Shown here piece after piece: positions 1,006 through 43,646 of a stretch of DNA of 51,515 nt. The notes beneath the pieces were generated by a model that was not told the DNA's origin, did no database searches, and saw only the letters and a list, made by a program, of their open reading frames with translations. How positions within the stretch are numbered: position 1 is the stretch's first letter; the number at the start of each line of letters is the position of its first letter. The DNA lies in the IMG/VR virus record IMGVR_UViG_2681813321_000027. The stretch is one strand, 5' to 3'. Both the position numbers and the translations under genes were made by a program. The stretch is from a virus. Lineage: Duplodnaviria > Heunggongvirae > Uroviricota > Caudoviricetes.

Positions 1006-1101
1006 TGCGAAGCCCTCCAATGAACCGCCCTACAATTTCTCCAGCCTCTTTCCAGCAATAATCAGACCAGACAAAGAGCAGGTCTAACCAGTTTTCTGGA
1101 C

Positions 1102-5007: not shown

Positions 5008-7830
5008 ATGACGGCAGAGTACATCAGGGACTGGCAACAACCGCGCCACGCAGTGGGGCGTGAAGGAACGGGGATCCCCGCTCCTGAATCCGCGCTTTCC
5101 TCCTGGCTGGATGCCTACCGGGCAGAGAACGAGCGCCGCCAGGAAATGGCTGATGCGGCGTTCTCCGCCACGCCGCTGGGCAACCTGATTAATAAAAGCC
5201 TGGACGCACAGGAAAAACAGGACAAAACCATCACACTGGCAGGAGACGCCAGAAAACAGGCACGTGGCGCGGTGGATGAAGCCATGGCCTCGCTGCGCCT
5301 GCTGCCGTCCTATCTGCGCGATCCGCTTATTCGCCACCTCTCCTTCCTGCGCAAAAAACAGGAAGCCGATCGCCGGAAAGGCAAAAAGAGCTGGCAGGCT
5401 GAACGCTACGCGTGCGGAACCCTGCGCAAAATATTCGAACGTCTGGACCGCACCGACCACCGCTGGCTGACACCGGGTTATCGCTCCCTTGCCGGACGCG
5501 AACGCCTGGATGATTTGCTTTACCTGCCGCAGCTCAACAAACACCAGATACAGACGCTGGCCACCATGACGGCGGCGATGTTCAGCAGCACCTTCGAAAA
5601 ACTCTGCGATGGCTTTGGCGCGACTGATGGCGAGCTGACCATGGATGTAACGCTGAAGGCTTATCAGATGCTGGCCCGCATGGCGTTACACCTGCACGCC
5701 ATGCCTCCACATTATGACGCACTGACAACAGACAAAGACCGGAGGAACGAACCGGACACGGAGCTGCTGCCGGGCGCAATCCTTCGCTTGACCTGTGCGG
5801 AATGGTGGAAACGCAAACTATGGCTGTTGCGTTGTGAGTGGCGGGAAGAACAACTCCGCGCCGCCTGTCTGGTTTCCAGAAAAACATCCCCCTATCTGAG
5901 CCAGGACGCGTTAAGCGAGTTTCGCGCACAGCGCGAGAAAACACGCGATTTCCTGAAAAGTTTCATGCTGGAAAATGAAGACGGGTTCACGATTGATCTC
6001 GAGACGGTGTATTACGCGGGAGTAAGTAACCCGGTTCACCGTAAGGCAGAAATGATGGCCACCATGAAGGGACTGGAACTTCTGGCCGAAGCCCGTGGCG
6101 ACAGAGCGGTGTTTCTGACCGTCACCTGCCCGTCAAAATACCACGCAACAACGGAGAACGGTCATCCGAACCCCAAATGGAACGGGGCCACCATGCGCGA
6201 CTCCAGCGATTACCTGGTTAACACGTTTTTTGCGGCGGTCCGCAAAAAACTGAACCGCGACGGCCTGCGCTGGTATGGCATCCGCACGGTGGAGCCTCAC
6301 CATGACGGCACTGTGCACTGGCATATGATGGTCTTTGCACATCCGGACGAGATTGAAACCATCGTGTCCCACGTCTGCGATATTGCCATTCAGGAGGGCC
6401 GCCACGAGCTGGGCGATGACATAACTCCGCGTTTTAAGGCGGAGTATGTCGACGGCTCAAAAGGCACACCAACCAGCTACATCGCCACCTACATCGGAAA
6501 GAACCTGGACAGCCGCGCCGTGGATGGCATCGACCCGAAAACGGGCAAGCCACGCGTTGACCACGAAACCGGAAAATCAATGGCCGAGAGCGTGGAGCGC
6601 GCCATCGGCTGGGCGCGCCTTCACCGGGTCCGTCAGTTCCAGTTCTTTGGCATCCCCTCCCGTCAGGTGTGGCGTGAACTGCGCCGCCTTGCCAGCCAGA
6701 TGGCACGCAATCCGGAAGGCCCGCAACGGCTGAAAGATGATGCAATGGATGCGGTACTCGCTGCCGCCGATGCCGGGTGTTTTGCCACCTACATTGAAAA
6801 ACAGGGTGGCGTGCTTGTTCCACGCAAGGACTACCTGATTCGCACCGCCTACGACCTCGCAGATGAGCTGAACGATTACGGCGAACAGAGCGTACAGATT
6901 TACGGGATCTGGTCACCACTCATCGGGGAATCCTCCCGTGTGTGCACGCATCCGGATAACTGGAAGCTGGTAAGACGTAAACCAGAACCGGAAGACAACG
7001 CCCACGAAAATGGTTTTGACCTTCAGGGCGGCCCTGCCGCCCCTTGGACTCGTGGCAATAACTGTCCCCGTGTACAGGAAACGGACGACAACGGGACAGA
7101 ACAGCCGGAAGAACGGCCAGCACCGTGGCCGCAGCTCCCTGACGGCGTTGAAGTGAACGAATGGATGCGCTCACTGAAACGGCACGAACGCCGGGCGCTG
7201 ATGCGTTCGCTTCGTGACAAACAGGCAAAAAACAGCAGTGATGAAATGCAGAGCTGGACACAGAGCCGCAAACAGCAGCGGCCTTTGCCTGATAACCACG
7301 AATTACTCGCTAAAGAATGGCGGGAGTCTGCTGAATCTCTCGGCCTGCATATCGGTGAACAGCAGATGCAGCACCTGTTACGGGGCGGCAGCCTGTACGT
7401 TGACGGCAGCATCATTGCACCGCAGGGATTTGAAATTGTACGCAAACCGGATACCCGACCGGACAGCCGGATCACGCAGCTCTGGCAGCGCCTGAGCCGT
7501 AACCACGGCGTAAGCAGTACGGAGATCCGCCATAACCCGGTCGCCAGCTATCTGGAACAGCTGGGGGCATCAGACCCCGAAGCCGCCGCACGCCTGGCAT
7601 CCACACTTCAGCAGGACCAGAACACCATGAAAACACCCGTTACCGTGCTTTCTGACATGCTGCGCGCCATCCGCGACGCAGAGCACGCACAGAGAATCAG
7701 TGAAACCACTGAACGCGCCCGCCGCAAAGCAGACCTGCTGCGGGGTAGCCTGACCAGTGGAAACAAAAAACAGACAGAAAAGGGATTCACAAATCCCGTA
7801 AATGAGCAAAAAACGCGCCGCGATATATGA
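5008..7830 (+). CDS. A: rolling-circle replication initiator (P2 gpA family)
   Basis: 940 aa; HUH motif VHWHMMVF (about 6316-6336) and two-tyrosine motif YIATYIGK (about 6475-6501); long charged C-terminal region. Confidence 0.85.
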   Translation: MTAEYIRDWQQPRHAVGREGTGIPAPESALSSWLDAYRAENERRQEMADAAFSATPLGNLINKSLDAQEKQDKTITLAGDARKQARGAVDEAMASLRLLPSYLRDPLIRHLSFLRKKQEADRRKGKKSWQAERYACGTLRKIFERLDRTDHRWLTPGYRSLAGRERLDDLLYLPQLNKHQIQTLATMTAAMFSSTFEKLCDGFGATDGELTMDVTLKAYQMLARMALHLHAMPPHYDALTTDKDRRNEPDTELLPGAILRLTCAEWWKRKLWLLRCEWREEQLRAACLVSRKTSPYLSQDALSEFRAQREKTRDFLKSFMLENEDGFTIDLETVYYAGVSNPVHRKAEMMATMKGLELLAEARGDRAVFLTVTCPSKYHATTENGHPNPKWNGATMRDSSDYLVNTFFAAVRKKLNRDGLRWYGIRTVEPHHDGTVHWHMMVFAHPDEIETIVSHVCDIAIQEGRHELGDDITPRFKAEYVDGSKGTPTSYIATYIGKNLDSRAVDGIDPKTGKPRVDHETGKSMAESVERAIGWARLHRVRQFQFFGIPSRQVWRELRRLASQMARNPEGPQRLKDDAMDAVLAAADAGCFATYIEKQGGVLVPRKDYLIRTAYDLADELNDYGEQSVQIYGIWSPLIGESSRVCTHPDNWKLVRRKPEPEDNAHENGFDLQGGPAAPWTRGNNCPRVQETDDNGTEQPEERPAPWPQLPDGVEVNEWMRSLKRHERRALMRSLRDKQAKNSSDEMQSWTQSRKQQRPLPDNHELLAKEWRESAESLGLHIGEQQMQHLLRGGSLYVDGSIIAPQGFEIVRKPDTRPDSRITQLWQRLSRNHGVSSTEIRHNPVASYLEQLGASDPEAAARLASTLQQDQNTMKTPVTVLSDMLRAIRDAEHAQRISETTERARRKADLLRGSLTSGNKKQTEKGFTNPVNEQKTRRDI

Positions 7831-7875
7831 AGCGCGCATAAAACAGGCAAAAACGGGATTTCAGAATCCCGTAAA
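7782..7875. promoter_or_regulatory. paired palindromic repeats upstream of parM (parC-like centromere/operator candidate)
   Basis: gggattcacaaatcccgtaaa (7782-7802, inside the last codons of A) and gggatttcagaatcccgtaaa (7855-7875); each an inverted repeat gggatt-N4-aatccc; copies in repeat units 2 and 3, absent from unit 4. Confidence 0.4.
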
Positions 7876-7906
7876 CGATTAATTAATCAACATAAGGAAA
7901 AGCGAC

Positions 7907-8866
7907 ATGAAAATTTGTATCGATGACGGCTCCACCAACATCAAGCTGGCATGGACTGAGAAGGGCGAACGCCGCAACGCCATCAGCCCAAACAGCTTCA
8001 AGTCGGAATGGTCTGCGCCGTTCGGTGGCACGCAGCCCGCGAACTACATGCTTGATGGCGTGCGCTATGGTTTTGATCCGGTCAGCGATCGCTTTGTCCA
8101 GACGACCGACACGCAATACCAGTACAGCGATGTGAATGTCATTGCCATTCATCACGCGCTGGTCAAATCAGGCATCACACCACAGGAAGTGGATGTGGTT
8201 GTCACCCTGCCACTGAGCGAATATTTCGACACAAACGCACAGCCGGACATGGCCAACATCAATCGCAAAAAAGCAAACGTCATGCGCCCGGTGGCGTACC
8301 AGAACGGAAAAGCATTCACTATCCGTAACGTACGGGTTATGCCTGAATCCATTCCGGCTGGTTTTAAAGCACTGGCTGACATGAGTCCGTTTGAATCCCT
8401 GCTGATTGTGGATTTAGGCGGAACCACGCTGGATGTGGCAAAGGTTCAGGGACAACTGGCAGGTATCAGCCAGGTGTTTTGCGATCCACACGTAGGCGTT
8501 TCCCTGATGGCCGATGCCGTACTGTCGGTGATGGCCACTAACGGTATGCGTACCAGTCACCACATCGCCAATACCATTATCGAACATCGCCATGATGAAG
8601 CCTGGCTGCGCCAGCACATCCACAATGACGCGCATTACGCCAGCCTGATGGCGGTTATTCGTGAAAAGGAAGAAACACTGAAACAACGCGTGTTCCGCGC
8701 GCTGGCGGGTTTTTCGGGTTACGGGCGGGTGATGGTTGTCGGTGGCGGGGCGGAGATTGTGGCACCCGCTATCCGCGAAGCCTGCGGAGTTAATGCGACT
8801 TTCATCGCGGACGGGGTGCCACAGTTTGCTCTGGTTAATGGGCTGTACGCAATGGACAAGGAGTAA
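7907..8866 (+). CDS. parM: ParM/StbA-like actin-fold ATPase
   Basis: 319 aa; MKICIDDGSTNIKLAW, DLGGTTLDV and VVGGGAEI motifs; collinear with plasmid R1 ParM as recalled. Confidence 0.85.
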   Translation: MKICIDDGSTNIKLAWTEKGERRNAISPNSFKSEWSAPFGGTQPANYMLDGVRYGFDPVSDRFVQTTDTQYQYSDVNVIAIHHALVKSGITPQEVDVVVTLPLSEYFDTNAQPDMANINRKKANVMRPVAYQNGKAFTIRNVRVMPESIPAGFKALADMSPFESLLIVDLGGTTLDVAKVQGQLAGISQVFCDPHVGVSLMADAVLSVMATNGMRTSHHIANTIIEHRHDEAWLRQHIHNDAHYASLMAVIREKEETLKQRVFRALAGFSGYGRVMVVGGGAEIVAPAIREACGVNATFIADGVPQFALVNGLYAMDKE

Positions 8867-8870
8867 ACCA

Positions 8871-9182
8871 ATGACGACACCAACCAGACGGATAAGTTTC
8901 TATCTGAAGCCCGCCGCCGTCAAGAACGAAGGCGAAGCATGCGCCTGGCTGGACAGCCTTACACCAGAAGCCCGCAAAAGTGGTCAACGCGTGGCTTTTC
9001 TGGCCGGGCTGGCACTACTGAAAATGAATCCGGCAGAGGCTTACCGACTGGCTGCATGGGCTGATGATGAGGCGTTATCAGTGACACAAACCAGGACAGA
9101 ACGCCCCGCGTCACAGCCAGTACCAACCGCACAGATAACCAGTCAGATGGCCGGAAATATCCGGGCGTTATTTCCCGAATAA
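8871..9182 (+). CDS. parR: ParR-like adaptor (putative)
   Basis: 103 aa from ATG 8871 with aaggag RBS; AFLAGLALL and IRALFPE resemble R1 ParR; directly downstream of parM. Confidence 0.55.
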   Translation: MTTPTRRISFYLKPAAVKNEGEACAWLDSLTPEARKSGQRVAFLAGLALLKMNPAEAYRLAAWADDEALSVTQTRTERPASQPVPTAQITSQMAGNIRALFPE

Positions 9183-9188
9183 CACAAC

Positions 9189-9210
9189 ATCAGGGCGCAT
9201 CCGCCCTGAT
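9189..9210 (+). other. perfect hairpin between parR and zbd gene
   Basis: atcagggcg-catc-cgccctgat, 9-bp stem, 7 nt after parR stop; no strong T-run. Confidence 0.3.
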
Positions 9211-9245
9211 GACTTTAACCCGGGAGCATAAACAAGGGGGACACA

Positions 9246-9578
9246 ATGCAATACATTGACAGAGAAAAAGCGCAGCGACTGATTGAGCGGATGGAAGCGC
9301 TGGCGAAAGAAGAAAATGTCAACATCCAAAAAATAGCTGAATGTGGCCAGATAGTTCTTCGTCGTGAAAAAGACCTCAAACAACTGATGTCTGGCGAAAC
9401 CAGCAAAACATGGACTTCAGGCGAGAAGACGGTTTATTGCAGTTTCTGCAATAAATCCCAGTACGAAGTCACAAAGGTGATTGCCGGACCGTCTGTTTAC
9501 ATCTGCAATGAGTGTGTGGATTTGTGCAATGAAATTATCAGGAAAGAAGTGACAGACAAAAAGGAAAAAAACGCATGA
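9246..9578 (+). CDS. standalone ClpX zinc-binding-domain (C4 zinc finger) homolog
   Basis: 110 aa; C-terminal [38 protein letters not shown] closely matches the ClpX N-terminal ZBD (CxxC...CxxC); no AAA+ module. Confidence 0.75.
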
Positions 9579-9982
9579 ACAGAAAACAGAAACAAGAGTT
9601 GAAATACTTCTTACGTAAAGAAATTGCCAGGCTTGAAGATGCAGAGTCACAATCATCAGAAATTCCGTTCGGAATGGATATCAACGACGCCCGTATGCTT
9701 CAGGCATACCGTATAGCTCAGGCTGCACTACAGACAAAACCGTTAAATAACATACATGAAAAGTATGATTATTTTACGGATACCGCTTGCTTGCTGACAT
9801 CTGAAGAACAAAAGATAGCCCAACTTTTAGGCGACGCATGGAACCTGTATTTAACATTGCCAGTTGAGCATCCAATGGGTAGAGATGAATTTTGCCGGGC
9901 AATTCATCATTGCCAAAATATGGTGTTGGCACGCCCGGCCATCAGGGCGCTGGCCAGGAAGGGGCAAGGCTATAAAAGATAA
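9575..9982 (+). CDS. hypothetical protein co-translated with zbd
   Basis: 135 aa; ATGA overlap with zbd stop; no recognised domain. Confidence 0.55.
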
Positions 9983-9984
9983 GT

Positions 9985-10014
9985 AAAACGCCCTCCTCCA
10001 GGGCGTTTATTTCA
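9985..10014 (+). terminator. intrinsic terminator of the accessory operon
   Basis: aaacgccct-cctcc-agggcgttt followed by atttc; copies at about 16976, 25492, 33377. Confidence 0.6.
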
Positions 10015-10467
10015 ATGCACAATAGTGCACAAATTTGCACAATTTTTTTGAACGACTGTTTACCCTTCCAGCCCGTATAGCGGCTGGATCCGTCAAGGAT
10101 CCGTGCGTGCACAAAAAAACGCGCTTTTTCTGCGCGCAGGTGACGGGGGAACAGCCCGCGTTTCAGGGGGTAAATAGCATTCCCTGAACGATGTCGCAGA
10201 GACACAACAGAATGGCTGTATTTCTCACTCTGAGCGTGAAAAATACGTGAGGGATTCTGATTTGATGGGGTGAAAGGTAAGGCCGTCAAAATCGCACTGA
10301 GGCGGCGAAGAACATGCAGTCAACGCGGTGGGATTGCGTAAGAGTCTGACCGCCGATGATGGCAATAAGCAGAAAAGCGTCGTGAAATTATCTGATTGAT
10401 ACAGGAGCTGGAGAGCCGGGGCATAAATTTTTTATGCCCCGGCGAAGCAGCAGACAAGCGAAGCGCG
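10015..10467. other. cos / packaging region (candidate)
   Basis: 453-bp non-coding region in the P2 cos position next to the Q stop; three tgcacaa direct repeats (10015-10045), 13-bp-stem hairpin 10415-10443, G-rich tract gaggcggcgaagaacatgc at about 10298-10316. Confidence 0.4.
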
Positions 10468-11514
10468 TCAGGATGTGGGCTGGGTATCTAACAGTGCGTA
10501 AGGGTTAAAGCGGATCACCTCTTCGCCAAGCCAGTCATTGATGTGCTTCATGGCCTCCATGACGGGCATCAGCTCGTTAATTGCGTAAACCCGCGCGGCC
10601 TTCTCCACATCACCAAACGCACTTTTTTCACCCGGCATCGCCCCCATAAGTTGCGGCGGAACGCGGTGCGCAGCCAGCACATCATCACGGGATGCCGCCT
10701 TAACATTCATGAACTCATCCTTTGCGGTGATCTGCTGGAACGGCAAAATTTGCACCCCCTCTTTGCCCCCGTTGGGCGCATGAATGAGCACGTTTTTAAA
10801 CGCACCGCCACCACGTGCACCCTGTAGCGTTTCTTTCAGGGAGTCCATGCTTTCGCGGTTTACCTGCGCTGCACCGATGTAGATGATGCACCCGGCGTGG
10901 GATCCGTTGTCGTAATACAGTTTTCTGAACATGTCCGCCGAATGAGACAGGCTGGCCGAGAGTAATGCGCCGAGATATTCCGGCATGCCGTAGATTTCCT
11001 GGTTAATGTCAGGATTCATCAGGTGGCACACTTTGCCAGGGCGAAACTGGAACGCATCCTTGCCATCCTGCACATACCACCATGATTCAAGATCGCTACC
11101 GCGTCGCATGTATTTCGCCAGGGCGTGCCGTAATTTAAGCGGTTCGCCGAGCATATTGCTTCGAAGCTCAAGGAATGCGTTACCGAACACAAACCAGTCC
11201 AGCGCCAGCGCCGAGAAATCCTGCCGGGAAAGCAGCGGGTGCGGGATGTAGCAACCGAGTAATACATTGCGCTTAAAGTAAAGCGCAGACTGATGCCAGG
11301 ACGTTTGCCGGGCAGCTCTTGCCAGACCGTACCAGTCCACCGGGGTTTCATACCACCGCCCGTTATCAGCACAGTACATATTGTCCAGCAGGTCATGCCC
11401 GGTCAGGCGATAAGGACCATCAAATGTGAATGCACTGAGCGACGATTCTTTCCTGAGCGCATCAGCGAGATCAATGCGTGAACTCATGCGCACTTTTTTA
11501 TTTTTTCTGCTCAT
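10468..11514 (-). CDS. Q: portal protein (P2 gpQ family)
   Basis: 348 aa; size and position match P2 Q; ATGA overlap with P. Confidence 0.85.
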   Translation of the reverse strand: MSRKNKKVRMSSRIDLADALRKESSLSAFTFDGPYRLTGHDLLDNMYCADNGRWYETPVDWYGLARAARQTSWHQSALYFKRNVLLGCYIPHPLLSRQDFSALALDWFVFGNAFLELRSNMLGEPLKLRHALAKYMRRGSDLESWWYVQDGKDAFQFRPGKVCHLMNPDINQEIYGMPEYLGALLSASLSHSADMFRKLYYDNGSHAGCIIYIGAAQVNRESMDSLKETLQGARGGGAFKNVLIHAPNGGKEGVQILPFQQITAKDEFMNVKAASRDDVLAAHRVPPQLMGAMPGEKSAFGDVEKAARVYAINELMPVMEAMKHINDWLGEEVIRFNPYALLDTQPTS

Positions 11515-13229
11515 CAGAACTCCATAACCGTGAAACGCTCGTTTTCTCCTTCGCCGCCAATCGGTTCGTTAATGACAGCAAGCATGGTTGCCCACGCAAG
11601 GTCGCCGTGGCTGATCCCCCTCGCGCGGTCCGTTTCGTAAGTGATAAAGCCGCCCGGTGTTTTCACCTTACGCACGGCGTTAAAGGCCGCGACCAGCTCG
11701 CGTTCGGCGCGATCGTATTCCCACCGCCCGGCACGCATTATTTGCAGCATTTTCAGTACCAGCGACCGTTTTGATGACAGCGTGAAGGTGTACGGAATAG
11801 CAGCAGGGAAAAACCGTTTCACTATCTGATAAACAGCCTCCCCGTTCCCGCCCGTCACATCAATGCCGATGTGTTCCACGTTGTAGCGATACGTGAACTC
11901 TTCAATGACTCTGGCCTGTTCTTCAAACTCCAGCCCCTGAACGCGTCTCGTCTCCACCGTTCGAAAACGGCCACCAGGAACAGCCGGAGGAACCACCACG
12001 GACACAGCGCCGCTGTCGCCGTTGCCACTGCTGCCGTTTGCGTCATACCCAATCCATACCGGACGATTCCCCATCGGGCGGGGAGCAAAAGGTTTCCAGT
12101 CTTTCCAGTCGTCGTATCCGTCAACACCGCAGCCAATCAGGATATTCAGGTTAAATGCCGATTCCCCTTCGCGGACAAACTCACACATATAGAGATTGAG
12201 GAACTCGTCTTCGGTGTTTTCATCACGAATTTCGTCGATATCGGTGTGTTTCCAGCCGTGATTAACCACATCTTCCAGCGTGACAATTTGCCGCCACGTC
12301 CGGTCAGGGCAGATAAGCCCGTTATGCAGCGTTTTCCAGTCCACAGAAAAACGCTGGCGTTTATGCGAGGCCTTTTTCTCGTTCCAGCGGTCGCCGTTCC
12401 AGTAGGCGTATGCCTCGTGCGTTTCGGTGGATGGCGTGGAGAAGTAGGTGCGTCGCAGCCCGCTGAGGGTTGCCATAGCGCCAGCCACCTTGCGCAGTTC
12501 AGCAAAGCGACTGACCCAGAAAAATTCATCAAAATAAAAATTGCCCGTATAGGACTGTGCCGTCGCAGCAGAAGTACCGAGAAAATGCAGTTCTGCGCCG
12601 TTGGAGAGGATGATTTTATCGCCCCCTTTCAGCTCCACATCAACTTCAGCCGCGGCCTTCTGAATAATGCTTTTAAACTGGAACGCCTGACGACGCGACG
12701 CAGACAAAAAAATCTGGTTACGCTGGTAAGGTTGTGCCACATCGTCACGCAGCGCCATCAGCAGTGCTTCCTGTGCAAAATACCAGGTCGCCCCAATCTG
12801 TCGGGATTTCAGGATCATCCTGTTACGTATCCCGGCTTCACTGCAAAGGGTCAGGGAGTCAAACCAGCCCCGCTGATGCCACTCCAGCCTGCTGATGATT
12901 TTTTCCCGCAGTGCGGCAATCTGTTCCGGCGTGAAATGATTTTTGAGTTTTTTCGCCCGGCCTTTCTTTCCTGCGGCCGTCACATCCGGCTGGCCATCAT
13001 GCAGCTTTTTAAGCTGCCGGGTCAGCAGGTCTATTTCCTTAAAGTCACCACCTGTTTTATTCTGTTTTTCAGTAAGCTGGATGAGACGCGCATCGATGGA
13101 CTGCGTGACACGCTGCACGGGTGGCGTTTCATCCCACTGGTCGCGTTTTTTCCACGCATAAATCGTGTTCGGGTTTATTCCCATCAGACGTGATATTTCT
13201 GCGGGCGGATAACCCTGCCAGTAAAGTTG
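11514..13229 (-). pseudogene. P: terminase ATPase subunit gpP, 5'-truncated at junction J1
   Basis: matches full P copies from about residue 13 onward; upstream part of the 605-aa track ORF is antisense A sequence. Confidence 0.7.
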
Positions 13230-13231
13230 AC
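13229..13231. other. junction J1: P 5' region / orphan A / internal A (= 6240)
   Basis: ...gtaaagttg + a + ccgcaaaaaactg...; compared with intact copies at 20220 and 6240. Confidence 0.85.
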
Positions 13232-14821
13232 CGCAAAAAACTGAACCGCGACGGCCTGCGCTGGTATGGCATCCGCACGGTGGAGCCTCACCATGACGGC
13301 ACTGTGCACTGGCATATGATGGTCTTTGCACATCCGGACGAGATTGAAACCATCGTGTCCCACGTCTGCGATATTGCCATTCAGGAGGGCCGCCACGAGC
13401 TGGGCGATGACATAACTCCGCGTTTTAAGGCGGAGTATGTCGACGGCTCAAAAGGCACACCAACCAGCTACATCGCCACCTACATCGGAAAGAACCTGGA
13501 CAGCCGCGCCGTGGATGGCATCGACCCGAAAACGGGCAAGCCACGCGTTGACCACGAAACCGGAAAATCAATGGCCGAGAGCGTGGAGCGCGCCATCGGC
13601 TGGGCGCGCCTTCACCGGGTCCGTCAGTTCCAGTTCTTTGGCATCCCCTCCCGTCAGGTGTGGCGTGAACTGCGCCGCCTTGCCAGCCAGATGGCACGCA
13701 ATCCGGAAGGCCCGCAACGGCTGAAAGATGATGCAATGGATGCGGTACTCGCTGCCGCCGATGCCGGGTGTTTTGCCACCTACATTGAAAAACAGGGTGG
13801 CGTGCTTGTTCCACGCAAGGACTACCTGATTCGCACCGCCTACGACCTCGCAGATGAGCTGAACGATTACGGCGAACAGAGCGTACAGATTTACGGGATC
13901 TGGTCACCACTCATCGGGGAATCCTCCCGTGTGTGCACGCATCCGGATAACTGGAAGCTGGTAAGACGTAAACCAGAACCGGAAGACAACGCCCACGAAA
14001 ATGGTTTTGACCTTCAGGGCGGCCCTGCCGCCCCTTGGACTCGTGGCAATAACTGTCCCCGTGTACAGGAAACGGACGACAACGGGACAGAACAGCCGGA
14101 AGAACGGCCAGCACCGTGGCCGCAGCTCCCTGACGGCGTTGAAGTGAACGAATGGATGCGCTCACTGAAACGGCACGAACGCCGGGCGCTGATGCGTTCG
14201 CTTCGTGACAAACAGGCAAAAAACAGCAGTGATGAAATGCAGAGCTGGACACAGAGCCGCAAACAGCAGCGGCCTTTGCCTGATAACCACGAATTACTCG
14301 CTAAAGAATGGCGGGAGTCTGCTGAATCTCTCGGCCTGCATATCGGTGAACAGCAGATGCAGCACCTGTTACGGGGCGGCAGCCTGTACGTTGACGGCAG
14401 CATCATTGCACCGCAGGGATTTGAAATTGTACGCAAACCGGATACCCGACCGGACAGCCGGATCACGCAGCTCTGGCAGCGCCTGAGCCGTAACCACGGC
14501 GTAAGCAGTACGGAGATCCGCCATAACCCGGTCGCCAGCTATCTGGAACAGCTGGGGGCATCAGACCCCGAAGCCGCCGCACGCCTGGCATCCACACTTC
14601 AGCAGGACCAGAACACCATGAAAACACCCGTTACCGTGCTTTCTGACATGCTGCGCGCCATCCGCGACGCAGAGCACGCACAGAGAATCAGTGAAACCAC
14701 TGAACGCGCCCGCCGCAAAGCAGACCTGCTGCGGGGTAGCCTGACCAGTGGAAACAAAAAACAGACAGAAAAGGGATTCACAAATCCCGTAAATGAGCAA
14801 AAAACGCGCCGCGATATATGA
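13231..14821 (+). pseudogene. A: 3' fragment of A (about residues 412-940), no start
   Basis: identical to 6240-7830. Confidence 0.8.
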
Positions 14822-14897
14822 AGCGCGCATAAAACAGGCAAAAACGGGATTTCAGAATCCCGTAAACGATTAATTAATCAACATAAGGAAAAGCGAC

Positions 14898-15857
14898 ATG
14901 AAAATTTGTATCGATGACGGCTCCACCAACATCAAGCTGGCATGGACTGAGAAGGGCGAACGCCGCAACGCCATCAGCCCAAACAGCTTCAAGTCGGAAT
15001 GGTCTGCGCCGTTCGGTGGCACGCAGCCCGCGAACTACATGCTTGATGGCGTGCGCTATGGTTTTGATCCGGTCAGCGATCGCTTTGTCCAGACGACCGA
15101 CACGCAATACCAGTACAGCGATGTGAATGTCATTGCCATTCATCACGCGCTGGTCAAATCAGGCATCACACCACAGGAAGTGGATGTGGTTGTCACCCTG
15201 CCACTGAGCGAATATTTCGACACAAACGCACAGCCGGACATGGCCAACATCAATCGCAAAAAAGCAAACGTCATGCGCCCGGTGGCGTACCAGAACGGAA
15301 AAGCATTCACTATCCGTAACGTACGGGTTATGCCTGAATCCATTCCGGCTGGTTTTAAAGCACTGGCTGACATGAGTCCGTTTGAATCCCTGCTGATTGT
15401 GGATTTAGGCGGAACCACGCTGGATGTGGCAAAGGTTCAGGGACAACTGGCAGGTATCAGCCAGGTGTTTTGCGATCCACACGTAGGCGTTTCCCTGATG
15501 GCCGATGCCGTACTGTCGGTGATGGCCACTAACGGTATGCGTACCAGTCACCACATCGCCAATACCATTATCGAACATCGCCATGATGAAGCCTGGCTGC
15601 GCCAGCACATCCACAATGACGCGCATTACGCCAGCCTGATGGCGGTTATTCGTGAAAAGGAAGAAACACTGAAACAACGCGTGTTCCGCGCGCTGGCGGG
15701 TTTTTCGGGTTACGGGCGGGTGATGGTTGTCGGTGGCGGGGCGGAGATTGTGGCACCCGCTATCCGCGAAGCCTGCGGAGTTAATGCGACTTTCATCGCG
15801 GACGGGGTGCCACAGTTTGCTCTGGTTAATGGGCTGTACGCAATGGACAAGGAGTAA
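14898..15857 (+). CDS. parM: ParM-like ATPase, copy 2
   Basis: identical protein, offset +6991. Confidence 0.8.
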   Translation: MKICIDDGSTNIKLAWTEKGERRNAISPNSFKSEWSAPFGGTQPANYMLDGVRYGFDPVSDRFVQTTDTQYQYSDVNVIAIHHALVKSGITPQEVDVVVTLPLSEYFDTNAQPDMANINRKKANVMRPVAYQNGKAFTIRNVRVMPESIPAGFKALADMSPFESLLIVDLGGTTLDVAKVQGQLAGISQVFCDPHVGVSLMADAVLSVMATNGMRTSHHIANTIIEHRHDEAWLRQHIHNDAHYASLMAVIREKEETLKQRVFRALAGFSGYGRVMVVGGGAEIVAPAIREACGVNATFIADGVPQFALVNGLYAMDKE

Positions 15858-15861
15858 ACCA

Positions 15862-16173
15862 ATGACGACACCAACCAGACGGATAAGTTTCTATCTGAAG
15901 CCCGCCGCCGTCAAGAACGAAGGCGAAGCATGCGCCTGGCTGGACAGCCTTACACCAGAAGCCCGCAAAAGTGGTCAACGCGTGGCTTTTCTGGCCGGGC
16001 TGGCACTACTGAAAATGAATCCGGCAGAGGCTTACCGACTGGCTGCATGGGCTGATGATGAGGCGTTATCAGTGACACAAACCAGGACAGAACGCCCCGC
16101 GTCACAGCCAGTACCAACCGCACAGATAACCAGTCAGATGGCCGGAAATATCCGGGCGTTATTTCCCGAATAA
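15862..16173 (+). CDS. parR: ParR-like, copy 2
   Basis: offset +6991. Confidence 0.5.
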   Translation: MTTPTRRISFYLKPAAVKNEGEACAWLDSLTPEARKSGQRVAFLAGLALLKMNPAEAYRLAAWADDEALSVTQTRTERPASQPVPTAQITSQMAGNIRALFPE

Positions 16174-16236
16174 CACAACATCAGGGCGCATCCGCCCTGA
16201 TGACTTTAACCCGGGAGCATAAACAAGGGGGACACA

Positions 16237-16569
16237 ATGCAATACATTGACAGAGAAAAAGCGCAGCGACTGATTGAGCGGATGGAAGCGCTGGCGAAAG
16301 AAGAAAATGTCAACATCCAAAAAATAGCTGAATGTGGCCAGATAGTTCTTCGTCGTGAAAAAGACCTCAAACAACTGATGTCTGGCGAAACCAGCAAAAC
16401 ATGGACTTCAGGCGAGAAGACGGTTTATTGCAGTTTCTGCAATAAATCCCAGTACGAAGTCACAAAGGTGATTGCCGGACCGTCTGTTTACATCTGCAAT
16501 GAGTGTGTGGATTTGTGCAATGAAATTATCAGGAAAGAAGTGACAGACAAAAAGGAAAAAAACGCATGA
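16237..16569 (+). CDS. ClpX ZBD homolog, copy 2
   Basis: offset +6991. Confidence 0.7.
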
Positions 16570-16973
16570 ACAGAAAACAGAAACAAGAGTTGAAATACTT
16601 CTTACGTAAAGAAATTGCCAGGCTTGAAGATGCAGAGTCACAATCATCAGAAATTCCGTTCGGAATGGATATCAACGACGCCCGTATGCTTCAGGCATAC
16701 CGTATAGCTCAGGCTGCACTACAGACAAAACCGTTAAATAACATACATGAAAAGTATGATTATTTTACGGATACCGCTTGCTTGCTGACATCTGAAGAAC
16801 AAAAGATAGCCCAACTTTTAGGCGACGCATGGAACCTGTATTTAACATTGCCAGTTGAGCATCCAATGGGTAGAGATGAATTTTGCCGGGCAATTCATCA
16901 TTGCCAAAATATGGTGTTGGCACGCCCGGCCATCAGGGCGCTGGCCAGGAAGGGGCAAGGCTATAAAAGATAA
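16566..16973 (+). CDS. hypothetical 135-aa protein, copy 2
   Basis: offset +6991. Confidence 0.5.
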
Positions 16974-17458
16974 GTAAAACGCCCTCCTCCAGGGCGTTTA
17001 TTTCAATGCACAATAGTGCACAAATTTGCACAATTTTTTTGAACGACTGTTTACCCTTCCAGCCCGTATAGCGGCTGGATCCGTCAAGGATCCGTGCGTG
17101 CACAAAAAAACGCGCTTTTTCTGCGCGCAGGTGACGGGGGAACAGCCCGCGTTTCAGGGGGTAAATAGCATTCCCTGAACGATGTCGCAGAGACACAACA
17201 GAATGGCTGTATTTCTCACTCTGAGCGTGAAAAATACGTGAGGGATTCTGATTTGATGGGGTGAAAGGTAAGGCCGTCAAAATCGCACTGAGGCGGCGAA
17301 GAACATGCAGTCAACGCGGTGGGATTGCGTAAGAGTCTGACTGTCGATGATGGCAATCAGCAGGAAAGCGTCGTGAAATTATCTGACTGATACAGGAGCT
17401 GGAGAGTCGGGGCATAAATTTTTTATGCCCCGGCGAAGCAGCAGACAAGCGAAGCGCG

Positions 17459-20256: not shown

Positions 20257-20410
20257 TGCTCCCCCTGAGTAATTACAGGAAGATTACCCGCGCGCGAAAC
20301 CGTTCTCCTTAACCCCCTGTTCTGGCCGTTTTCTTACAACAAAAGCCCTTTGTATCAGCCTGTTACGCTTTGCCATCATGACTGAAGAACCAGTCAGAGG
20401 GGCAAAAACT
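20257..20410. promoter_or_regulatory. divergent late promoter region (P leftward, O rightward)
   Basis: 154-bp gap between divergent P and O; TGT...ACA dyad candidates; copies at 28773-28926 and 36658-36811. Confidence 0.4.
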
Positions 20411-21247: not shown

Positions 21248-21270
21248 TAAGACAAAGGAGCAAATTTTTT

Positions 21271-22561: not shown

Positions 22562-23337
22562 GCAATAACTGTCCCCGTGTACAGGAAACGGACGACAACG
22601 GGACAGAACAGCCGGAAGAACGGCCAGCACCGTGGCCGCAGCTCCCTGACGGCGTTGAAGTGAACGAATGGATGCGCTCACTGAAACGGCACGAACGCCG
22701 GGCGCTGATGCGTTCGCTTCGTGACAAACAGGCAAAAAACAGCAGTGATGAAATGCAGAGCTGGACACAGAGCCGCAAACAGCAGCGGCCTTTGCCTGAT
22801 AACCACGAATTACTCGCTAAAGAATGGCGGGAGTCTGCTGAATCTCTCGGCCTGCATATCGGTGAACAGCAGATGCAGCACCTGTTACGGGGCGGCAGCC
22901 TGTACGTTGACGGCAGCATCATTGCACCGCAGGGATTTGAAATTGTACGCAAACCGGATACCCGACCGGACAGCCGGATCACGCAGCTCTGGCAGCGCCT
23001 GAGCCGTAACCACGGCGTAAGCAGTACGGAGATCCGCCATAACCCGGTCGCCAGCTATCTGGAACAGCTGGGGGCATCAGACCCCGAAGCCGCCGCACGC
23101 CTGGCATCCACACTTCAGCAGGACCAGAACACCATGAAAACACCCGTTACCGTGCTTTCTGACATGCTGCGCGCCATCCGCGACGCAGAGCACGCACAGA
23201 GAATCAGTGAAACCACTGAACGCGCCCGCCGCAAAGCAGACCTGCTGCGGGGTAGCCTGACCAGTGGAAACAAAAAACAGACAGAAAAGGGATTCACAAA
23301 TCCCGTAAATGAGCAAAAAACGCGCCGCGATATATGA
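22561..23337 (+). pseudogene. A: 3' fragment of A (last about 258 codons)
   Basis: identical to 7054-7830. Confidence 0.8.
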
Positions 23338-23413
23338 AGCGCGCATAAAACAGGCAAAAACGGGATTTCAGAATCCCGTAAACGATTAATTAATCAACAT
23401 AAGGAAAAGCGAC

Positions 23414-24373
23414 ATGAAAATTTGTATCGATGACGGCTCCACCAACATCAAGCTGGCATGGACTGAGAAGGGCGAACGCCGCAACGCCATCAGCCCAAAC
23501 AGCTTCAAGTCGGAATGGTCTGCGCCGTTCGGTGGCACGCAGCCCGCGAACTACATGCTTGATGGCGTGCGCTATGGTTTTGATCCGGTCAGCGATCGCT
23601 TTGTCCAGACGACCGACACGCAATACCAGTACAGCGATGTGAATGTCATTGCCATTCATCACGCGCTGGTCAAATCAGGCATCACACCACAGGAAGTGGA
23701 TGTGGTTGTCACCCTGCCACTGAGCGAATATTTCGACACAAACGCACAGCCGGACATGGCCAACATCAATCGCAAAAAAGCAAACGTCATGCGCCCGGTG
23801 GCGTACCAGAACGGAAAAGCATTCACTATCCGTAACGTACGGGTTATGCCTGAATCCATTCCGGCTGGTTTTAAAGCACTGGCTGACATGAGTCCGTTTG
23901 AATCCCTGCTGATTGTGGATTTAGGCGGAACCACGCTGGATGTGGCAAAGGTTCAGGGACAACTGGCAGGTATCAGCCAGGTGTTTTGCGATCCACACGT
24001 AGGCGTTTCCCTGATGGCCGATGCCGTACTGTCGGTGATGGCCACTAACGGTATGCGTACCAGTCACCACATCGCCAATACCATTATCGAACATCGCCAT
24101 GATGAAGCCTGGCTGCGCCAGCACATCCACAATGACGCGCATTACGCCAGCCTGATGGCGGTTATTCGTGAAAAGGAAGAAACACTGAAACAACGCGTGT
24201 TCCGCGCGCTGGCGGGTTTTTCGGGTTACGGGCGGGTGATGGTTGTCGGTGGCGGGGCGGAGATTGTGGCACCCGCTATCCGCGAAGCCTGCGGAGTTAA
24301 TGCGACTTTCATCGCGGACGGGGTGCCACAGTTTGCTCTGGTTAATGGGCTGTACGCAATGGACAAGGAGTAA
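23414..24373 (+). CDS. parM: ParM-like ATPase, copy 3
   Basis: offset +15507. Confidence 0.8.
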   Translation: MKICIDDGSTNIKLAWTEKGERRNAISPNSFKSEWSAPFGGTQPANYMLDGVRYGFDPVSDRFVQTTDTQYQYSDVNVIAIHHALVKSGITPQEVDVVVTLPLSEYFDTNAQPDMANINRKKANVMRPVAYQNGKAFTIRNVRVMPESIPAGFKALADMSPFESLLIVDLGGTTLDVAKVQGQLAGISQVFCDPHVGVSLMADAVLSVMATNGMRTSHHIANTIIEHRHDEAWLRQHIHNDAHYASLMAVIREKEETLKQRVFRALAGFSGYGRVMVVGGGAEIVAPAIREACGVNATFIADGVPQFALVNGLYAMDKE

Positions 24374-24377
24374 ACCA

Positions 24378-24689
24378 ATGACGACACCAACCAGACGGAT
24401 AAGTTTCTATCTGAAGCCCGCCGCCGTCAAGAACGAAGGCGAAGCATGCGCCTGGCTGGACAGCCTTACACCAGAAGCCCGCAAAAGTGGTCAACGCGTG
24501 GCTTTTCTGGCCGGGCTGGCACTACTGAAAATGAATCCGGCAGAGGCTTACCGACTGGCTGCATGGGCTGATGATGAGGCGTTATCAGTGACACAAACCA
24601 GGACAGAACGCCCCGCGTCACAGCCAGTACCAACCGCACAGATAACCAGTCAGATGGCCGGAAATATCCGGGCGTTATTTCCCGAATAA
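24378..24689 (+). CDS. parR: ParR-like, copy 3
   Basis: offset +15507. Confidence 0.5.
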   Translation: MTTPTRRISFYLKPAAVKNEGEACAWLDSLTPEARKSGQRVAFLAGLALLKMNPAEAYRLAAWADDEALSVTQTRTERPASQPVPTAQITSQMAGNIRALFPE

Positions 24690-24752
24690 CACAACATCAG
24701 GGCGCATCCGCCCTGATGACTTTAACCCGGGAGCATAAACAAGGGGGACACA

Positions 24753-25085
24753 ATGCAATACATTGACAGAGAAAAAGCGCAGCGACTGATTGAGCGGATG
24801 GAAGCGCTGGCGAAAGAAGAAAATGTCAACATCCAAAAAATAGCTGAATGTGGCCAGATAGTTCTTCGTCGTGAAAAAGACCTCAAACAACTGATGTCTG
24901 GCGAAACCAGCAAAACATGGACTTCAGGCGAGAAGACGGTTTATTGCAGTTTCTGCAATAAATCCCAGTACGAAGTCACAAAGGTGATTGCCGGACCGTC
25001 TGTTTACATCTGCAATGAGTGTGTGGATTTGTGCAATGAAATTATCAGGAAAGAAGTGACAGACAAAAAGGAAAAAAACGCATGA
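24753..25085 (+). CDS. ClpX ZBD homolog, copy 3
   Basis: offset +15507. Confidence 0.7.
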
Positions 25086-25489
25086 ACAGAAAACAGAAAC
25101 AAGAGTTGAAATACTTCTTACGTAAAGAAATTGCCAGGCTTGAAGATGCAGAGTCACAATCATCAGAAATTCCGTTCGGAATGGATATCAACGACGCCCG
25201 TATGCTTCAGGCATACCGTATAGCTCAGGCTGCACTACAGACAAAACCGTTAAATAACATACATGAAAAGTATGATTATTTTACGGATACCGCTTGCTTG
25301 CTGACATCTGAAGAACAAAAGATAGCCCAACTTTTAGGCGACGCATGGAACCTGTATTTAACATTGCCAGTTGAGCATCCAATGGGTAGAGATGAATTTT
25401 GCCGGGCAATTCATCATTGCCAAAATATGGTGTTGGCACGCCCGGCCATCAGGGCGCTGGCCAGGAAGGGGCAAGGCTATAAAAGATAA
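25082..25489 (+). CDS. hypothetical 135-aa protein, copy 3
   Basis: offset +15507. Confidence 0.5.
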
Positions 25490-25974
25490 GTAAAACGCCC
25501 TCCTCCAGGGCGTTTATTTCAATGCACAATAGTGCACAAATTTGCACAATTTTTTTGAACGACTGTTTACCCTTCCAGCCCGTATAGCGGCTGGATCCGT
25601 CAAGGATCCGTGCGTGCACAAAAAAACGCGCTTTTTCTGCGCGCAGGTGACGGGGGAACAGCCCGCGTTTCAGGGGGTAAATAGCATTCCCTGAACGATG
25701 TCGCAGAGACACAACAGAATGGCTGTATTTCTCACTCTGAGCGTGAAAAATACGTGAGGGATTCTGATTTGATGGGGTGAAAGGTAAGGCCGTCAAAATC
25801 GCACTGAGGCGGCGAAGAACATGCAGTCAACGCGGTGGGATTGCGTAAGAGTCTGACCGCCGATGATGGCAATAAGCAGAAAAGCGTCGTGAAATTATCT
25901 GATTGATACAGGAGCTGGAGAGCCGGGGCATAAATTTTTTATGCCCCGGCGAAGCAGCAGACAAGCGAAGCGCG

Positions 25975-31267: not shown

Positions 31268-31269
31268 AG
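31267..31269. other. junction J3: M / orphan A / parM upstream (= 7877)
   Basis: ...ggtactgac + a + gattaattaatcaacataagg...; breakpoint lies just 3' of palindromic repeat 2. Confidence 0.85.
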
Positions 31270-31298
31270 ATTAATTAATCAACATAAGGAAAAGCGAC

Positions 31299-32258
31299 AT
31301 GAAAATTTGTATCGATGACGGCTCCACCAACATCAAGCTGGCATGGACTGAGAAGGGCGAACGCCGCAACGCCATCAGCCCAAACAGCTTCAAGTCGGAA
31401 TGGTCTGCGCCGTTCGGTGGCACGCAGCCCGCGAACTACATGCTTGATGGCGTGCGCTATGGTTTTGATCCGGTCAGCGATCGCTTTGTCCAGACGACCG
31501 ACACGCAATACCAGTACAGCGATGTGAATGTCATTGCCATTCATCACGCGCTGGTCAAATCAGGCATCACACCACAGGAAGTGGATGTGGTTGTCACCCT
31601 GCCACTGAGCGAATATTTCGACACAAACGCACAGCCGGACATGGCCAACATCAATCGCAAAAAAGCAAACGTCATGCGCCCGGTGGCGTACCAGAACGGA
31701 AAAGCATTCACTATCCGTAACGTACGGGTTATGCCTGAATCCATTCCGGCTGGTTTTAAAGCACTGGCTGACATGAGTCCGTTTGAATCCCTGCTGATTG
31801 TGGATTTAGGCGGAACCACGCTGGATGTGGCAAAGGTTCAGGGACAACTGGCAGGTATCAGCCAGGTGTTTTGCGATCCACACGTAGGCGTTTCCCTGAT
31901 GGCCGATGCCGTACTGTCGGTGATGGCCACTAACGGTATGCGTACCAGTCACCACATCGCCAATACCATTATCGAACATCGCCATGATGAAGCCTGGCTG
32001 CGCCAGCACATCCACAATGACGCGCATTACGCCAGCCTGATGGCGGTTATTCGTGAAAAGGAAGAAACACTGAAACAACGCGTGTTCCGCGCGCTGGCGG
32101 GTTTTTCGGGTTACGGGCGGGTGATGGTTGTCGGTGGCGGGGCGGAGATTGTGGCACCCGCTATCCGCGAAGCCTGCGGAGTTAATGCGACTTTCATCGC
32201 GGACGGGGTGCCACAGTTTGCTCTGGTTAATGGGCTGTACGCAATGGACAAGGAGTAA
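31299..32258 (+). CDS. parM: ParM-like ATPase, copy 4 (no upstream repeats)
   Basis: offset +23392. Confidence 0.8.
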   Translation: MKICIDDGSTNIKLAWTEKGERRNAISPNSFKSEWSAPFGGTQPANYMLDGVRYGFDPVSDRFVQTTDTQYQYSDVNVIAIHHALVKSGITPQEVDVVVTLPLSEYFDTNAQPDMANINRKKANVMRPVAYQNGKAFTIRNVRVMPESIPAGFKALADMSPFESLLIVDLGGTTLDVAKVQGQLAGISQVFCDPHVGVSLMADAVLSVMATNGMRTSHHIANTIIEHRHDEAWLRQHIHNDAHYASLMAVIREKEETLKQRVFRALAGFSGYGRVMVVGGGAEIVAPAIREACGVNATFIADGVPQFALVNGLYAMDKE

Positions 32259-32262
32259 ACCA

Positions 32263-32574
32263 ATGACGACACCAACCAGACGGATAAGTTTCTATCTGAA
32301 GCCCGCCGCCGTCAAGAACGAAGGCGAAGCATGCGCCTGGCTGGACAGCCTTACACCAGAAGCCCGCAAAAGTGGTCAACGCGTGGCTTTTCTGGCCGGG
32401 CTGGCACTACTGAAAATGAATCCGGCAGAGGCTTACCGACTGGCTGCATGGGCTGATGATGAGGCGTTATCAGTGACACAAACCAGGACAGAACGCCCCG
32501 CGTCACAGCCAGTACCAACCGCACAGATAACCAGTCAGATGGCCGGAAATATCCGGGCGTTATTTCCCGAATAA
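32263..32574 (+). CDS. parR: ParR-like, copy 4
   Basis: offset +23392. Confidence 0.5.
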   Translation: MTTPTRRISFYLKPAAVKNEGEACAWLDSLTPEARKSGQRVAFLAGLALLKMNPAEAYRLAAWADDEALSVTQTRTERPASQPVPTAQITSQMAGNIRALFPE

Positions 32575-32637
32575 CACAACATCAGGGCGCATCCGCCCTG
32601 ATGACTTTAACCCGGGAGCATAAACAAGGGGGACACA

Positions 32638-32970
32638 ATGCAATACATTGACAGAGAAAAAGCGCAGCGACTGATTGAGCGGATGGAAGCGCTGGCGAAA
32701 GAAGAAAATGTCAACATCCAAAAAATAGCTGAATGTGGCCAGATAGTTCTTCGTCGTGAAAAAGACCTCAAACAACTGATGTCTGGCGAAACCAGCAAAA
32801 CATGGACTTCAGGCGAGAAGACGGTTTATTGCAGTTTCTGCAATAAATCCCAGTACGAAGTCACAAAGGTGATTGCCGGACCGTCTGTTTACATCTGCAA
32901 TGAGTGTGTGGATTTGTGCAATGAAATTATCAGGAAAGAAGTGACAGACAAAAAGGAAAAAAACGCATGA
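32638..32970 (+). CDS. ClpX ZBD homolog, copy 4
   Basis: offset +23392. Confidence 0.7.
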
Positions 32971-33374
32971 ACAGAAAACAGAAACAAGAGTTGAAATACT
33001 TCTTACGTAAAGAAATTGCCAGGCTTGAAGATGCAGAGTCACAATCATCAGAAATTCCGTTCGGAATGGATATCAACGACGCCCGTATGCTTCAGGCATA
33101 CCGTATAGCTCAGGCTGCACTACAGACAAAACCGTTAAATAACATACATGAAAAGTATGATTATTTTACGGATACCGCTTGCTTGCTGACATCTGAAGAA
33201 CAAAAGATAGCCCAACTTTTAGGCGACGCATGGAACCTGTATTTAACATTGCCAGTTGAGCATCCAATGGGTAGAGATGAATTTTGCCGGGCAATTCATC
33301 ATTGCCAAAATATGGTGTTGGCACGCCCGGCCATCAGGGCGCTGGCCAGGAAGGGGCAAGGCTATAAAAGATAA
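32967..33374 (+). CDS. hypothetical 135-aa protein, copy 4
   Basis: offset +23392. Confidence 0.5.
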
Positions 33375-33859
33375 GTAAAACGCCCTCCTCCAGGGCGTTT
33401 ATTTCAATGCACAATAGTGCACAAATTTGCACAATTTTTTTGAACGACTGTTTACCCTTCCAGCCCGTATAGCGGCTGGATCCGTCAAGGATCCGTGCGT
33501 GCACAAAAAAACGCGCTTTTTCTGCGCGCAGGTGACGGGGGAACAGCCCGCGTTTCAGGGGGTAAATAGCATTCCCTGAACGATGTCGCAGAGACACAAC
33601 AGAATGGCTGTATTTCTCACTCTGAGCGTGAAAAATACGTGAGGGATTCTGATTTGATGGGGTGAAAGGTAAGGCCGTCAAAATCGCACTGAGGCGGCGA
33701 AGAACATGCAGTCAACGCGGTGGGATTGCGTAAGAGTCTGACCGCCGATGATGGCAATAAGCAGAAAAGCGTCGTGAAATTATCTGATTGATACAGGAGC
33801 TGGAGAGCCGGGGCATAAATTTTTTATGCCCCGGCGAAGCAGCAGACAAGCGAAGCGCG

Positions 33860-43643: not shown

Positions 43644-43646
43644 ATC

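Follow-up and report, generated by a model that had tools for sequence, protein, structure and literature searches.

A conserved R1-type partition module and two probably independent cargo genes in the gpA–gpQ hotspot of a P88-like prophage

Introduction

Do the four open reading frames (ORFs) that lie between replication gene A and the portal gene of a P2-family prophage constitute a single accessory system, or have components of separate origin come to occupy adjacent positions? The question is raised by IMG/VR virus record IMGVR_UViG_2681813321_000027, a stretch of 51,515 nucleotides (nt) that was analyzed in its entirety and is referred to here as the window, in which gene A is followed by genes encoding a ParM-like actin-fold ATPase, a ParR-like adaptor, a protein carrying the zinc-binding domain (ZBD) of ClpX, and a protein of 135 amino acids (aa) designated ORF4. 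An earlier note on this DNA read the block (positions 7777-10014) as one compact, undescribed module that could be either a segrosome stabilizing an episomal form or a new defense or anti-defense system. The corresponding interval of P2-like phages has been described by Rousset et al. (2022; PMC9122126) as the gpA–gpQ hotspot, with 1,650 arrangements in 18,150 occurrences, and about a quarter of P2-like phages were found to have a putative plasmid partitioning system at this position. We consider that the block probably represents two things side by side in the hotspot, a type II partition module and two cargo genes unrelated to it.

Results and Discussion

An R1-type partition module downstream of gene A

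The four ORFs, the palindromes upstream of them, the ATGA overlap of the last two genes, and the hairpin that closes the block were all found where the earlier note had placed them, and its ParM-like, ParR-like, and ClpX-ZBD-like assignments were borne out by Pfam searches. The parM gene (7907..8866, plus strand) encodes a 319-aa actin-fold partition ATPase with matches to StbA_N (1.1e-81) and to the ParM C-terminal domain (3.4e-68); it aligns end to end with ParM of plasmid R1 (PDB 1mwk; E = 4.4e-92, 147 of 317 residues identical, 46%), and the phosphate- and adenosine-binding motifs DDGSTN, DLGGTTLD, and GGGAE are visible in the translation. The adjoining parR/stbB gene (8871..9182, plus strand) specifies a 103-aa adaptor that matches Plasmid_stab_B (PF10784) at 1.6e-24, with a score of 85.9 bits against a cut-off of 25, and that also matches phrog_2515, "partition protein," at 7e-59. 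Two of the features by which a type II ParMRC locus is recognized, ParM domains with intact motifs and an adjoining ParR/StbB gene, are present.

In IMG/VR, 203 contigs encode a ParM relative; 80 loci, retained at 98-100% ParM identity, were scored with the window proteins, and in every one of them parR lies directly after parM. Two ParR alleles, approximately 52-58% identical overall, occur beside 98%-identical ParM and the same upstream palindromes. The residues common to both are confined to the first 14 and the last 8 or so, with MTTPTRRISFYLKP at the N-terminus and NI(R/Q)A(L/F)FP(E/K) at the C-terminus, a pattern which suggests that ParR consists of an N-terminal DNA-binding strand, a free linker, and a C-terminal ParM-binding tail. 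This predicted layout of the P88-type ParR resembles the architecture of R1 ParR, which binds DNA through its N-terminal part and ParM through its C-terminal tail.

A parC-like region, the putative centromere and promoter of the module (7764..7878, plus strand), precedes parM and is made up of two 42-nt direct repeats at 7764-7805 and 7837-7878. Each contains one palindrome, GGGATT-N4-AATCCC, the first (7782-7797) within the 3' end of gene A and the second (7855-7870) just 5' of parM. The motif occurs six times in the window, which holds four copies of the block, and all six matches lie upstream of parM copies, against a chance expectation of 0.13. The repeats are retained in the 80 IMG/VR loci irrespective of the ParR allele, and we infer that they are bound by ParR; a consensus promoter scan located no sigma-70 site at the repeat region. 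The parts expected of a type II system, parM, parR, and the repeats of a candidate centromere, are present and conserved.

The module shares with R1 parMRC (= NR1 stbAB) the order repeats-parM-parR, repeated DNA directly upstream of parM, a ParM that is 46% identical over its full length with its motifs intact, and a ParR of the same family, PF10784. It differs in being carried by an integrating P2-family phage rather than by a low-copy plasmid and in its putative centromere, which has two 16-bp palindromes 73 bp apart, whereas R1 parC consists of ten 11-bp iterons arranged as direct repeats.

The variable slot begins downstream of parR

The GC content of parM and parR (0.545-0.554) is the same as that of gpA and the portal gene, and it falls by 12 points, from 0.55 to 0.43, on entry into the ZBD gene and ORF4. 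Between parR and the ZBD gene lies a strong hairpin with a perfect 10-bp stem (9188..9211; -18.4 kcal/mol, z = -7.7), and homology among P88-like phages stops at window positions 9182-9208, that is, at the parR stop codon or the adjoining hairpin. The breakpoints after parR, together with the drop in GC content, indicate that parMR belongs to the conserved backbone of the lineage and that the variable slot starts past parR. This refines the description given in PMC9122126, where the whole gpA–gpQ interval is the hotspot, whereas here parMR is conserved and variability sets in from the parR stop or hairpin. The block ends in a terminator-like hairpin with a 9-bp stem and a 5-nt loop (9986..10008; -13.4 kcal/mol, z = -3.4), flanked by T-rich sequence on both strands. 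An Rfam scan of positions 7600-10600 gave no match.

The position of the two low-GC genes, between gpA and the portal gene gpQ and beside cos, and the high turnover at this site are those of hotspot cargo, and the earlier view of the A-to-cos slot as a variable cargo locus was upheld both by PMC9122126 and by our own survey, in which 53 loci spanning parR to the portal gene displayed 32 arrangements of 994-4173 bp. Other occupants of the slot comprise AbiLi/AbiLii-like, RmrA-like, and PDC-M11A-like proteins, a DUF4760 protein, Phd/Doc, a PIN protein and HTH-peptidase pair, and Ead/Ea22-like and Rrf2-like proteins; cargo of sister loci hits the PADLOC models for AbiLi, RmrA, and PDC-M11A.

The four genes do not travel as a set

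Genome counts were made over 5426 complete E. coli genomes. The parM-parR pair was present in 1307 (24%), in close agreement with the quarter of P2-like phages reported in PMC9122126 for the same locus and the same genes, and the phage was chromosomal in 1453 of its 1455 places. The ZBD gene and the 3' half of ORF4 were each found in 112 genomes, and the two were arranged as in the window in 14, compared with about 10 expected under independent assortment among parMR phages; there is no real excess of co-occurrence, and parMR is roughly ten times more frequent without the other two genes than with them. Among the 80 IMG/VR loci, 15 carry the ZBD gene and 3 the exact four-gene arrangement, while 2 have ORF4 without the ZBD gene and 1 has the C-terminal domain of ORF4 as a separate 87-aa gene. 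In approximately 75 complete E. coli genomes, ORF4 directly follows parR through a clean in-frame deletion of the ZBD gene; ZBD combined with Phd/Doc is a further natural variant, and around 20% of ZBD genes have no leader-type gene (see below) downstream. The deletion lies between the A-rich repeats AGAAAAAG and AAAAAGGAAAAAAAC (locus L004, positions 2469-2566, compared with window positions 9183-9574) and leaves a mini-ORF that still overlaps the start of the downstream gene.

The parMR pair is assigned to the backbone because it is present in 1307 of 5426 genomes, because ParR accompanies ParM in 80 of 80 loci, and because its GC content equals that of gpA and the portal gene; the ZBD gene and ORF4 are assigned to the cargo because of their GC content of 0.43, the breakpoints after parR, and their independent occurrence. 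The proposal of a compact, undescribed four-gene module did not survive this survey. The backbone is a commonly annotated module, carried by 24% of the E. coli genomes and named by RefSeq; the ZBD gene and ORF4 each occur without the other and without parMR, and the genes do not co-occur as a set, an outcome that the earlier note had itself named as grounds for rejecting its proposal. Neither is the combination new, since the Pfam listing of the arrangement already appears in Table S5 of PMC9122126 and gp17-gp20 of phage P88 (NC_026014) have the same arrangement with a shorter fourth gene. RefSeq designates the products "plasmid segregation protein ParM," "plasmid partitioning/stability family protein," "ClpX C4-type zinc finger protein," and "hypothetical protein." The block offers nothing new as a system: a known, widely annotated, and still putative partition module stands next to independent cargo in a published hotspot.

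A ClpX docking domain without a motor

The third gene (9246..9578, plus strand) encodes a 110-aa ZBD-only paralogue of ClpX in which an N-terminal two-helix extension is followed by a linker and a C4 zinc-binding domain that matches zf-C4_ClpX at residues 64-99 (6.8e-18; 64.7 bits, cut-off 27). The protein ends 10 residues past this domain and contains no AAA+ module, and it does not qualify as a ClpX unfoldase: the NCBIfam clpX models match over positions 3-54 only, with 51 bits against a cut-off of 370. The domain matches structures of the E. coli ClpX ZBD (PDB 1ovx and 2ds5; E = 7e-20), and of the 48 residues at 52-99, 33 are identical to those of the N-terminal domain of E. coli ClpX, including the four zinc ligands (CSFC...CNEC) and the F16/I46 hydrophobic patch, which in ClpX is the binding site for λO, SspB, RssB, and trigger factor (PMC7804408; PMC7226468). 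The four cysteines are invariant across the family. The phage protein and the host domain (PDB 1OVX, 2DS5-2DS8) have in common the C4 zinc ribbon and the patch; the phage protein is unlike ClpX in lacking the AAA+ module, in placing the ZBD at its C-terminus after the two-helix extension, and in being encoded by temperate phages.

A recent capture from host clpX was ruled out by the nucleotide identity of 60% and by the use of the same codon at only 14 of the 33 identical residues. Low codon sharing of this kind points to long-term selection keeping the protein like the host domain, and it indicates that this is an old gene held similar by selection. The two-helix extension is specific to the family and is kept down to 30% identity. 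In an exhaustive profile search of 1.8 billion representatives, the full architecture was limited to about ten clusters at 50% identity, while ZBD-only and tandem-ZBD proteins in general were numerous; metagenomes contain many small proteins that have no AAA+ module and carry between two and six ClpX-type ZBDs in tandem. In P2-like phages of E. coli and Salmonella that lack parMR, homologues with 43-67% identity occupy the gpA–gpQ slot, and others are found among the small early genes of phage D6 and of P1-like phage-plasmids of about 100 kb. The presence of homologues in parMR-less and unrelated phages marks the gene as an independent, recurrent accessory gene of temperate phages. Some public labels are misleading: in NC_026014 (gp18-gp19) and phage D6 (gp034), the ZBD protein is called a "carboxylate--amine ligase" and the ParR note refers to a "recombinase." The ZBD gene was neither discussed nor tested in PMC9122126, the Table S2 of which has no ClpX entry, and a literature search on phage-encoded ClpX ZBDs and zf-C4_ClpX found no functional study of phage ZBD-only proteins.

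A chimeric fourth gene

ORF4 (9575..9982, plus strand), which overlaps the ZBD gene in the sequence ATGA, encodes a chimeric protein composed of a leader (residues 1-58) and a helical-hairpin domain (residues ~66-135). Searches of the 135-aa sequence against Pfam, NCBIfam, PADLOC, and the PDB gave no match. The leader is common to 104-141-aa variants with other C-termini, and further small proteins of the hotspot have related leaders (46% identity across 48 aa) that display the pattern IPFG(L/M)D...L..KP. As seen at window positions 9575-9750 and in loci L022, L040, L051, and L072, the hotspot leader comprises a basic helix, IPFG(L/M)D, a second helix, and L..(K/E)P; it is joined to unrelated C-terminal domains and is found on DUF551-type proteins as well. 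It has the look of a "handle" module, either functional or prone to recombination.

The C-terminal 70 residues match phrog_13916 (8.7e-30), and so does every one of the 62 aligned homologues. In ORF4 the domain is joined to the leader; elsewhere it is mostly a stand-alone protein of 63-86 aa, in a family of at least 175 proteins from Yersinia, Hafnia, Enterobacter, Klebsiella, Pseudomonas, and Janthinobacterium. In five prophage contexts drawn from loci L091-L104 (Pseudomonas, Yersinia, Enterobacter, and Klebsiella prophages), the stand-alone gene lies either beside genes for an HNH endonuclease and the small and large terminase subunits or after a 430-aa integrase-like gene, upstream of lysis and terminase genes. 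phrog_13916 is a conserved, unannotated family of small phage proteins located near packaging genes. The "DNA ligase" label that it bears in PHROGs is not credible: an AlphaFold2 (AF2) model of the domain consists of two helices (pLDDT 93), a hairpin of about 70 aa without the adenylation and OB domains of a ligase, and none of the 62 members has a Pfam ligase match. The tail of ORF4 (window positions 9929-9982, with the segment RPAIRAL) resembles the ClpX-docking tail of SspB, RGGRPALRVVK, and members of the C-terminal domain family have kept a core R-x-[AG]-x-R-[AG]-[LF].

Proposed function and its rivals

We suggest that ParR dimers bind the two GGGATT-N4-AATCCC palindromes, which would flank or overlap the parM promoter, and that the C-terminal tail of ParR catches growing ParM-ATP filaments. 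These filaments would push or position circular copies of the phage genome outside the chromosome, whether following infection or excision or in a carrier state, and would separate sister DNA molecules by an R1-like mechanism, with ParR autoregulating the operon; the sequence shows the parts and their conservation, and ParR binding, filament formation, and the life-cycle stage at which they would operate are inferred. The notion of a segrosome for an episomal form is plausible for parMR alone. There are precedents on normally integrated elements: a type II locus, srpMRC, stabilizes the excised form of SXT/R391 integrating elements (PMC4489591), and the actin AlpC and its adaptor AlpA of prophage CGP3 are needed for efficient phage DNA replication (PMC4446434). 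Both resemble the present locus in combining an actin-type ATPase, an adaptor, and a DNA site, and both are distant from R1 ParM, of which the window ParM is a close relative. The low-GC cargo genes would recombine in and out independently. The 110-aa protein may be a dimer-forming copy of the ClpX docking domain that, lacking the motor, most likely would compete or pair with host ClpX ZBDs and change substrate choice; altered handling by ClpXP of adaptor-dependent or ZBD-dependent substrates would follow. The idea of a ClpX-targeting decoy is plausible for the ZBD gene alone. ORF4 is taken to be a recombinant in which the hotspot leader is joined to a small helical-hairpin domain.

Several observations weigh against this combination of a partition module and unrelated cargo. 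The phage integrates, and it is therefore not evident why it should need partition; the putative centromere offers only two candidate ParR sites; and searches of the literature for P88 with ParM and for Xuanwuvirus found no functional study of P88-type parMR. About 80% of E. coli ZBD genes are followed, with an ATGA overlap, by a gene that shares the ORF4 leader, and this pairing leaves room for an interaction between the ZBD protein and the leader. None of the four proteins had a significant match in PADLOC 2.0 (best, RT_UG36 at E = 0.019), and the absence of a model neither supports nor excludes a role in defense. A complete P88-like genome with an integrase, parMR, and the 135-aa gene but no ZBD gene has been filed as a 34,461-bp circular, non-mobilizable E. 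coli plasmid (NZ_CP148288.1; locus L090); this 34.4-kb record speaks for the partition reading in being compatible with an episomal phase, but the assembler may simply have picked up an excised genome in the course of replication.

That all four genes form one new segregation or defense/anti-defense module, with a filament ATPase, an adaptor, a ClpX decoy, and an effector, is suggested by their common strand, tight spacing, and single terminator-like hairpin and by the recurrence of the arrangement in 14 E. coli genomes, 3 IMG/VR contigs, and, with its shorter fourth gene, P88. The distribution has already largely refuted this reading, since co-occurrence scarcely departs from independent assortment, parMR is so much commoner by itself, and ZBD genes without parMR and 135-aa genes without a ZBD are both on record; the GC step and strong hairpin between parR and the ZBD gene also tell against it, and we regard it as extremely improbable. 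A rather different role for parMR, the organization of lytic replication through AlpC/AlpA-like positioning or transport of genomes rather than plasmid-like upkeep, would suit a phage that has an integrase and is almost invariably chromosomal, and it would be consistent with the location of parM directly 3' of gene A in the direction of early transcription and with the AlpAC precedent in the Corynebacterium prophage CGP3 (PMC4446434). It is unlikely, though by some way not negligible, for ParM is close to the R1 protein, whereas AlpC is a distant actin, and replication proceeds without parMR in P2 and in three quarters of P2-like phages (PMC9122126); the lytic and plasmid-like roles are, moreover, not mutually exclusive.

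The two cargo genes might instead be a functional pair. In one version, the 135-aa protein docks on the phage or host ZBD through its SspB-like tail and redirects or blocks ClpXP, a proposal in keeping with the ATGA overlap, the similarity to the SspB ClpX-binding tail and the family-wide conservation of its core, and the docking of SspB and RssB on the ZBD (PMC7804408; PMC7226468). The resemblance, which was noted post hoc, extends over seven residues in a segment predicted by AF2 to be helical, and the hydrophobic position equivalent to SspB L161 is arginine in many Pseudomonas members; only 14 of the 112 genomes that carry one of the two genes have the other as well, and the gene that usually lies downstream of the ZBD gene has another C-terminus without the motif. 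We consider such a ClpX-directed pair decidedly unlikely. It is similarly doubtful that the ZBD protein, as a host-factor mimic, titrates or hijacks the ClpX docking site in phage–phage or phage–host conflict with the 135-aa protein as a partner docking through RPAIRAL; were this so, ClpXP-labile phage or antitoxin proteins could be protected or ClpX-dependent competitors such as Mu-like phages starved, and phrog_13916 would represent a widespread, unrecognized group of ClpX ligands encoded by phages. The small size and overlap of the two genes, and the presence of Phd/Doc, AbiL, RmrA-like, and PDC-M11 systems in the same slot elsewhere, call to mind a toxin–antitoxin or abortive-infection pair. 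Genes of such a pair should co-occur; the ZBD gene stands alone in about 20% of its occurrences, the 135-aa gene is alone in some 100 genomes, and the in-frame ZBD deletion leaves the 135-aa gene in place. These single occurrences make a toxin–antitoxin relation unlikely, Pfam, NCBIfam, and PADLOC yielded no toxin or antitoxin match, and in our view there is very little prospect of this explanation being correct.

With the partition module and its independent cargo as the favored reading, the interest of the locus lies in its parts. In approximately a quarter of E. coli genomes, an integrating phage carries a presumed segregation machine of the R1 actin type that is intact and strongly conserved, and P2-family phages may have a plasmid-like phase. 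The ZBD proteins constitute a small, coherent phage family that copies the docking domain of ClpX at about 70% identity without the motor and turns up repeatedly in cargo slots of temperate phages unrelated to one another. Should they modulate the choice of substrates by ClpXP, they would make up a new type of protease regulator of phage origin, in the vein of the Lon inhibitors known from T4 and T7.

Prophage context and duplications in the window

The prophage is assigned to the P88-like group (Xuanwuvirus, Peduoviridae) of the P2 family and has 97% DNA identity to Escherichia phage P88. Pfam searches identified an integrase gene (1-1020, minus strand), replication gene A (gpA; 5008-7830), and the portal and large terminase genes (from 10468, minus strand), and the four ORFs sit between the last two of these features, gene A and the portal. 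Irregular direct duplications across 6240-39152 give the window four copies of the block, as part of a parM-to-terminase segment, with parM at 7907, 14898, 23414, and 31299; in these duplications, 6240-13235 equals 13231-20227, 14045-22559 equals 22561-31075, and 23384-31267 equals 31269-39152; a stretch of tail genes is also present in two copies (42431-46658 and 46657-50883). The second (14755..17005, offset +6991) and third (23271..25521, offset +15507) copies of the block, both on the plus strand, are identical to the first over 7777-10014. The fourth (31269..33406, plus strand, offset +23392) begins at a duplication junction 30 nt 5' of parM and for this reason lacks the palindromic repeats. 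The junctions all differ from each other, the first (13231) had no match in the 5426 complete RefSeq E. coli genomes, and the copies diverge through clustered substitutions that affect the portal, terminase, and cos-proximal DNA rather than through homopolymer errors. The duplications look like the work of an assembler joining variants of related phages rather than biological amplification, and they leave the reading of the cassette, identical in copies 1-3, unaffected.

The non-coding DNA between the terminal hairpin and the portal gene (10014-10467), presumed to contain cos, is dense in short repeats and palindromes, among them two occurrences each of TGCACAAT and GGATCCGT and a 13-bp perfect inverted repeat at 10415-10443. 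In sister prophages, RefSeq annotates a 42-aa ORF within the matching stretch.

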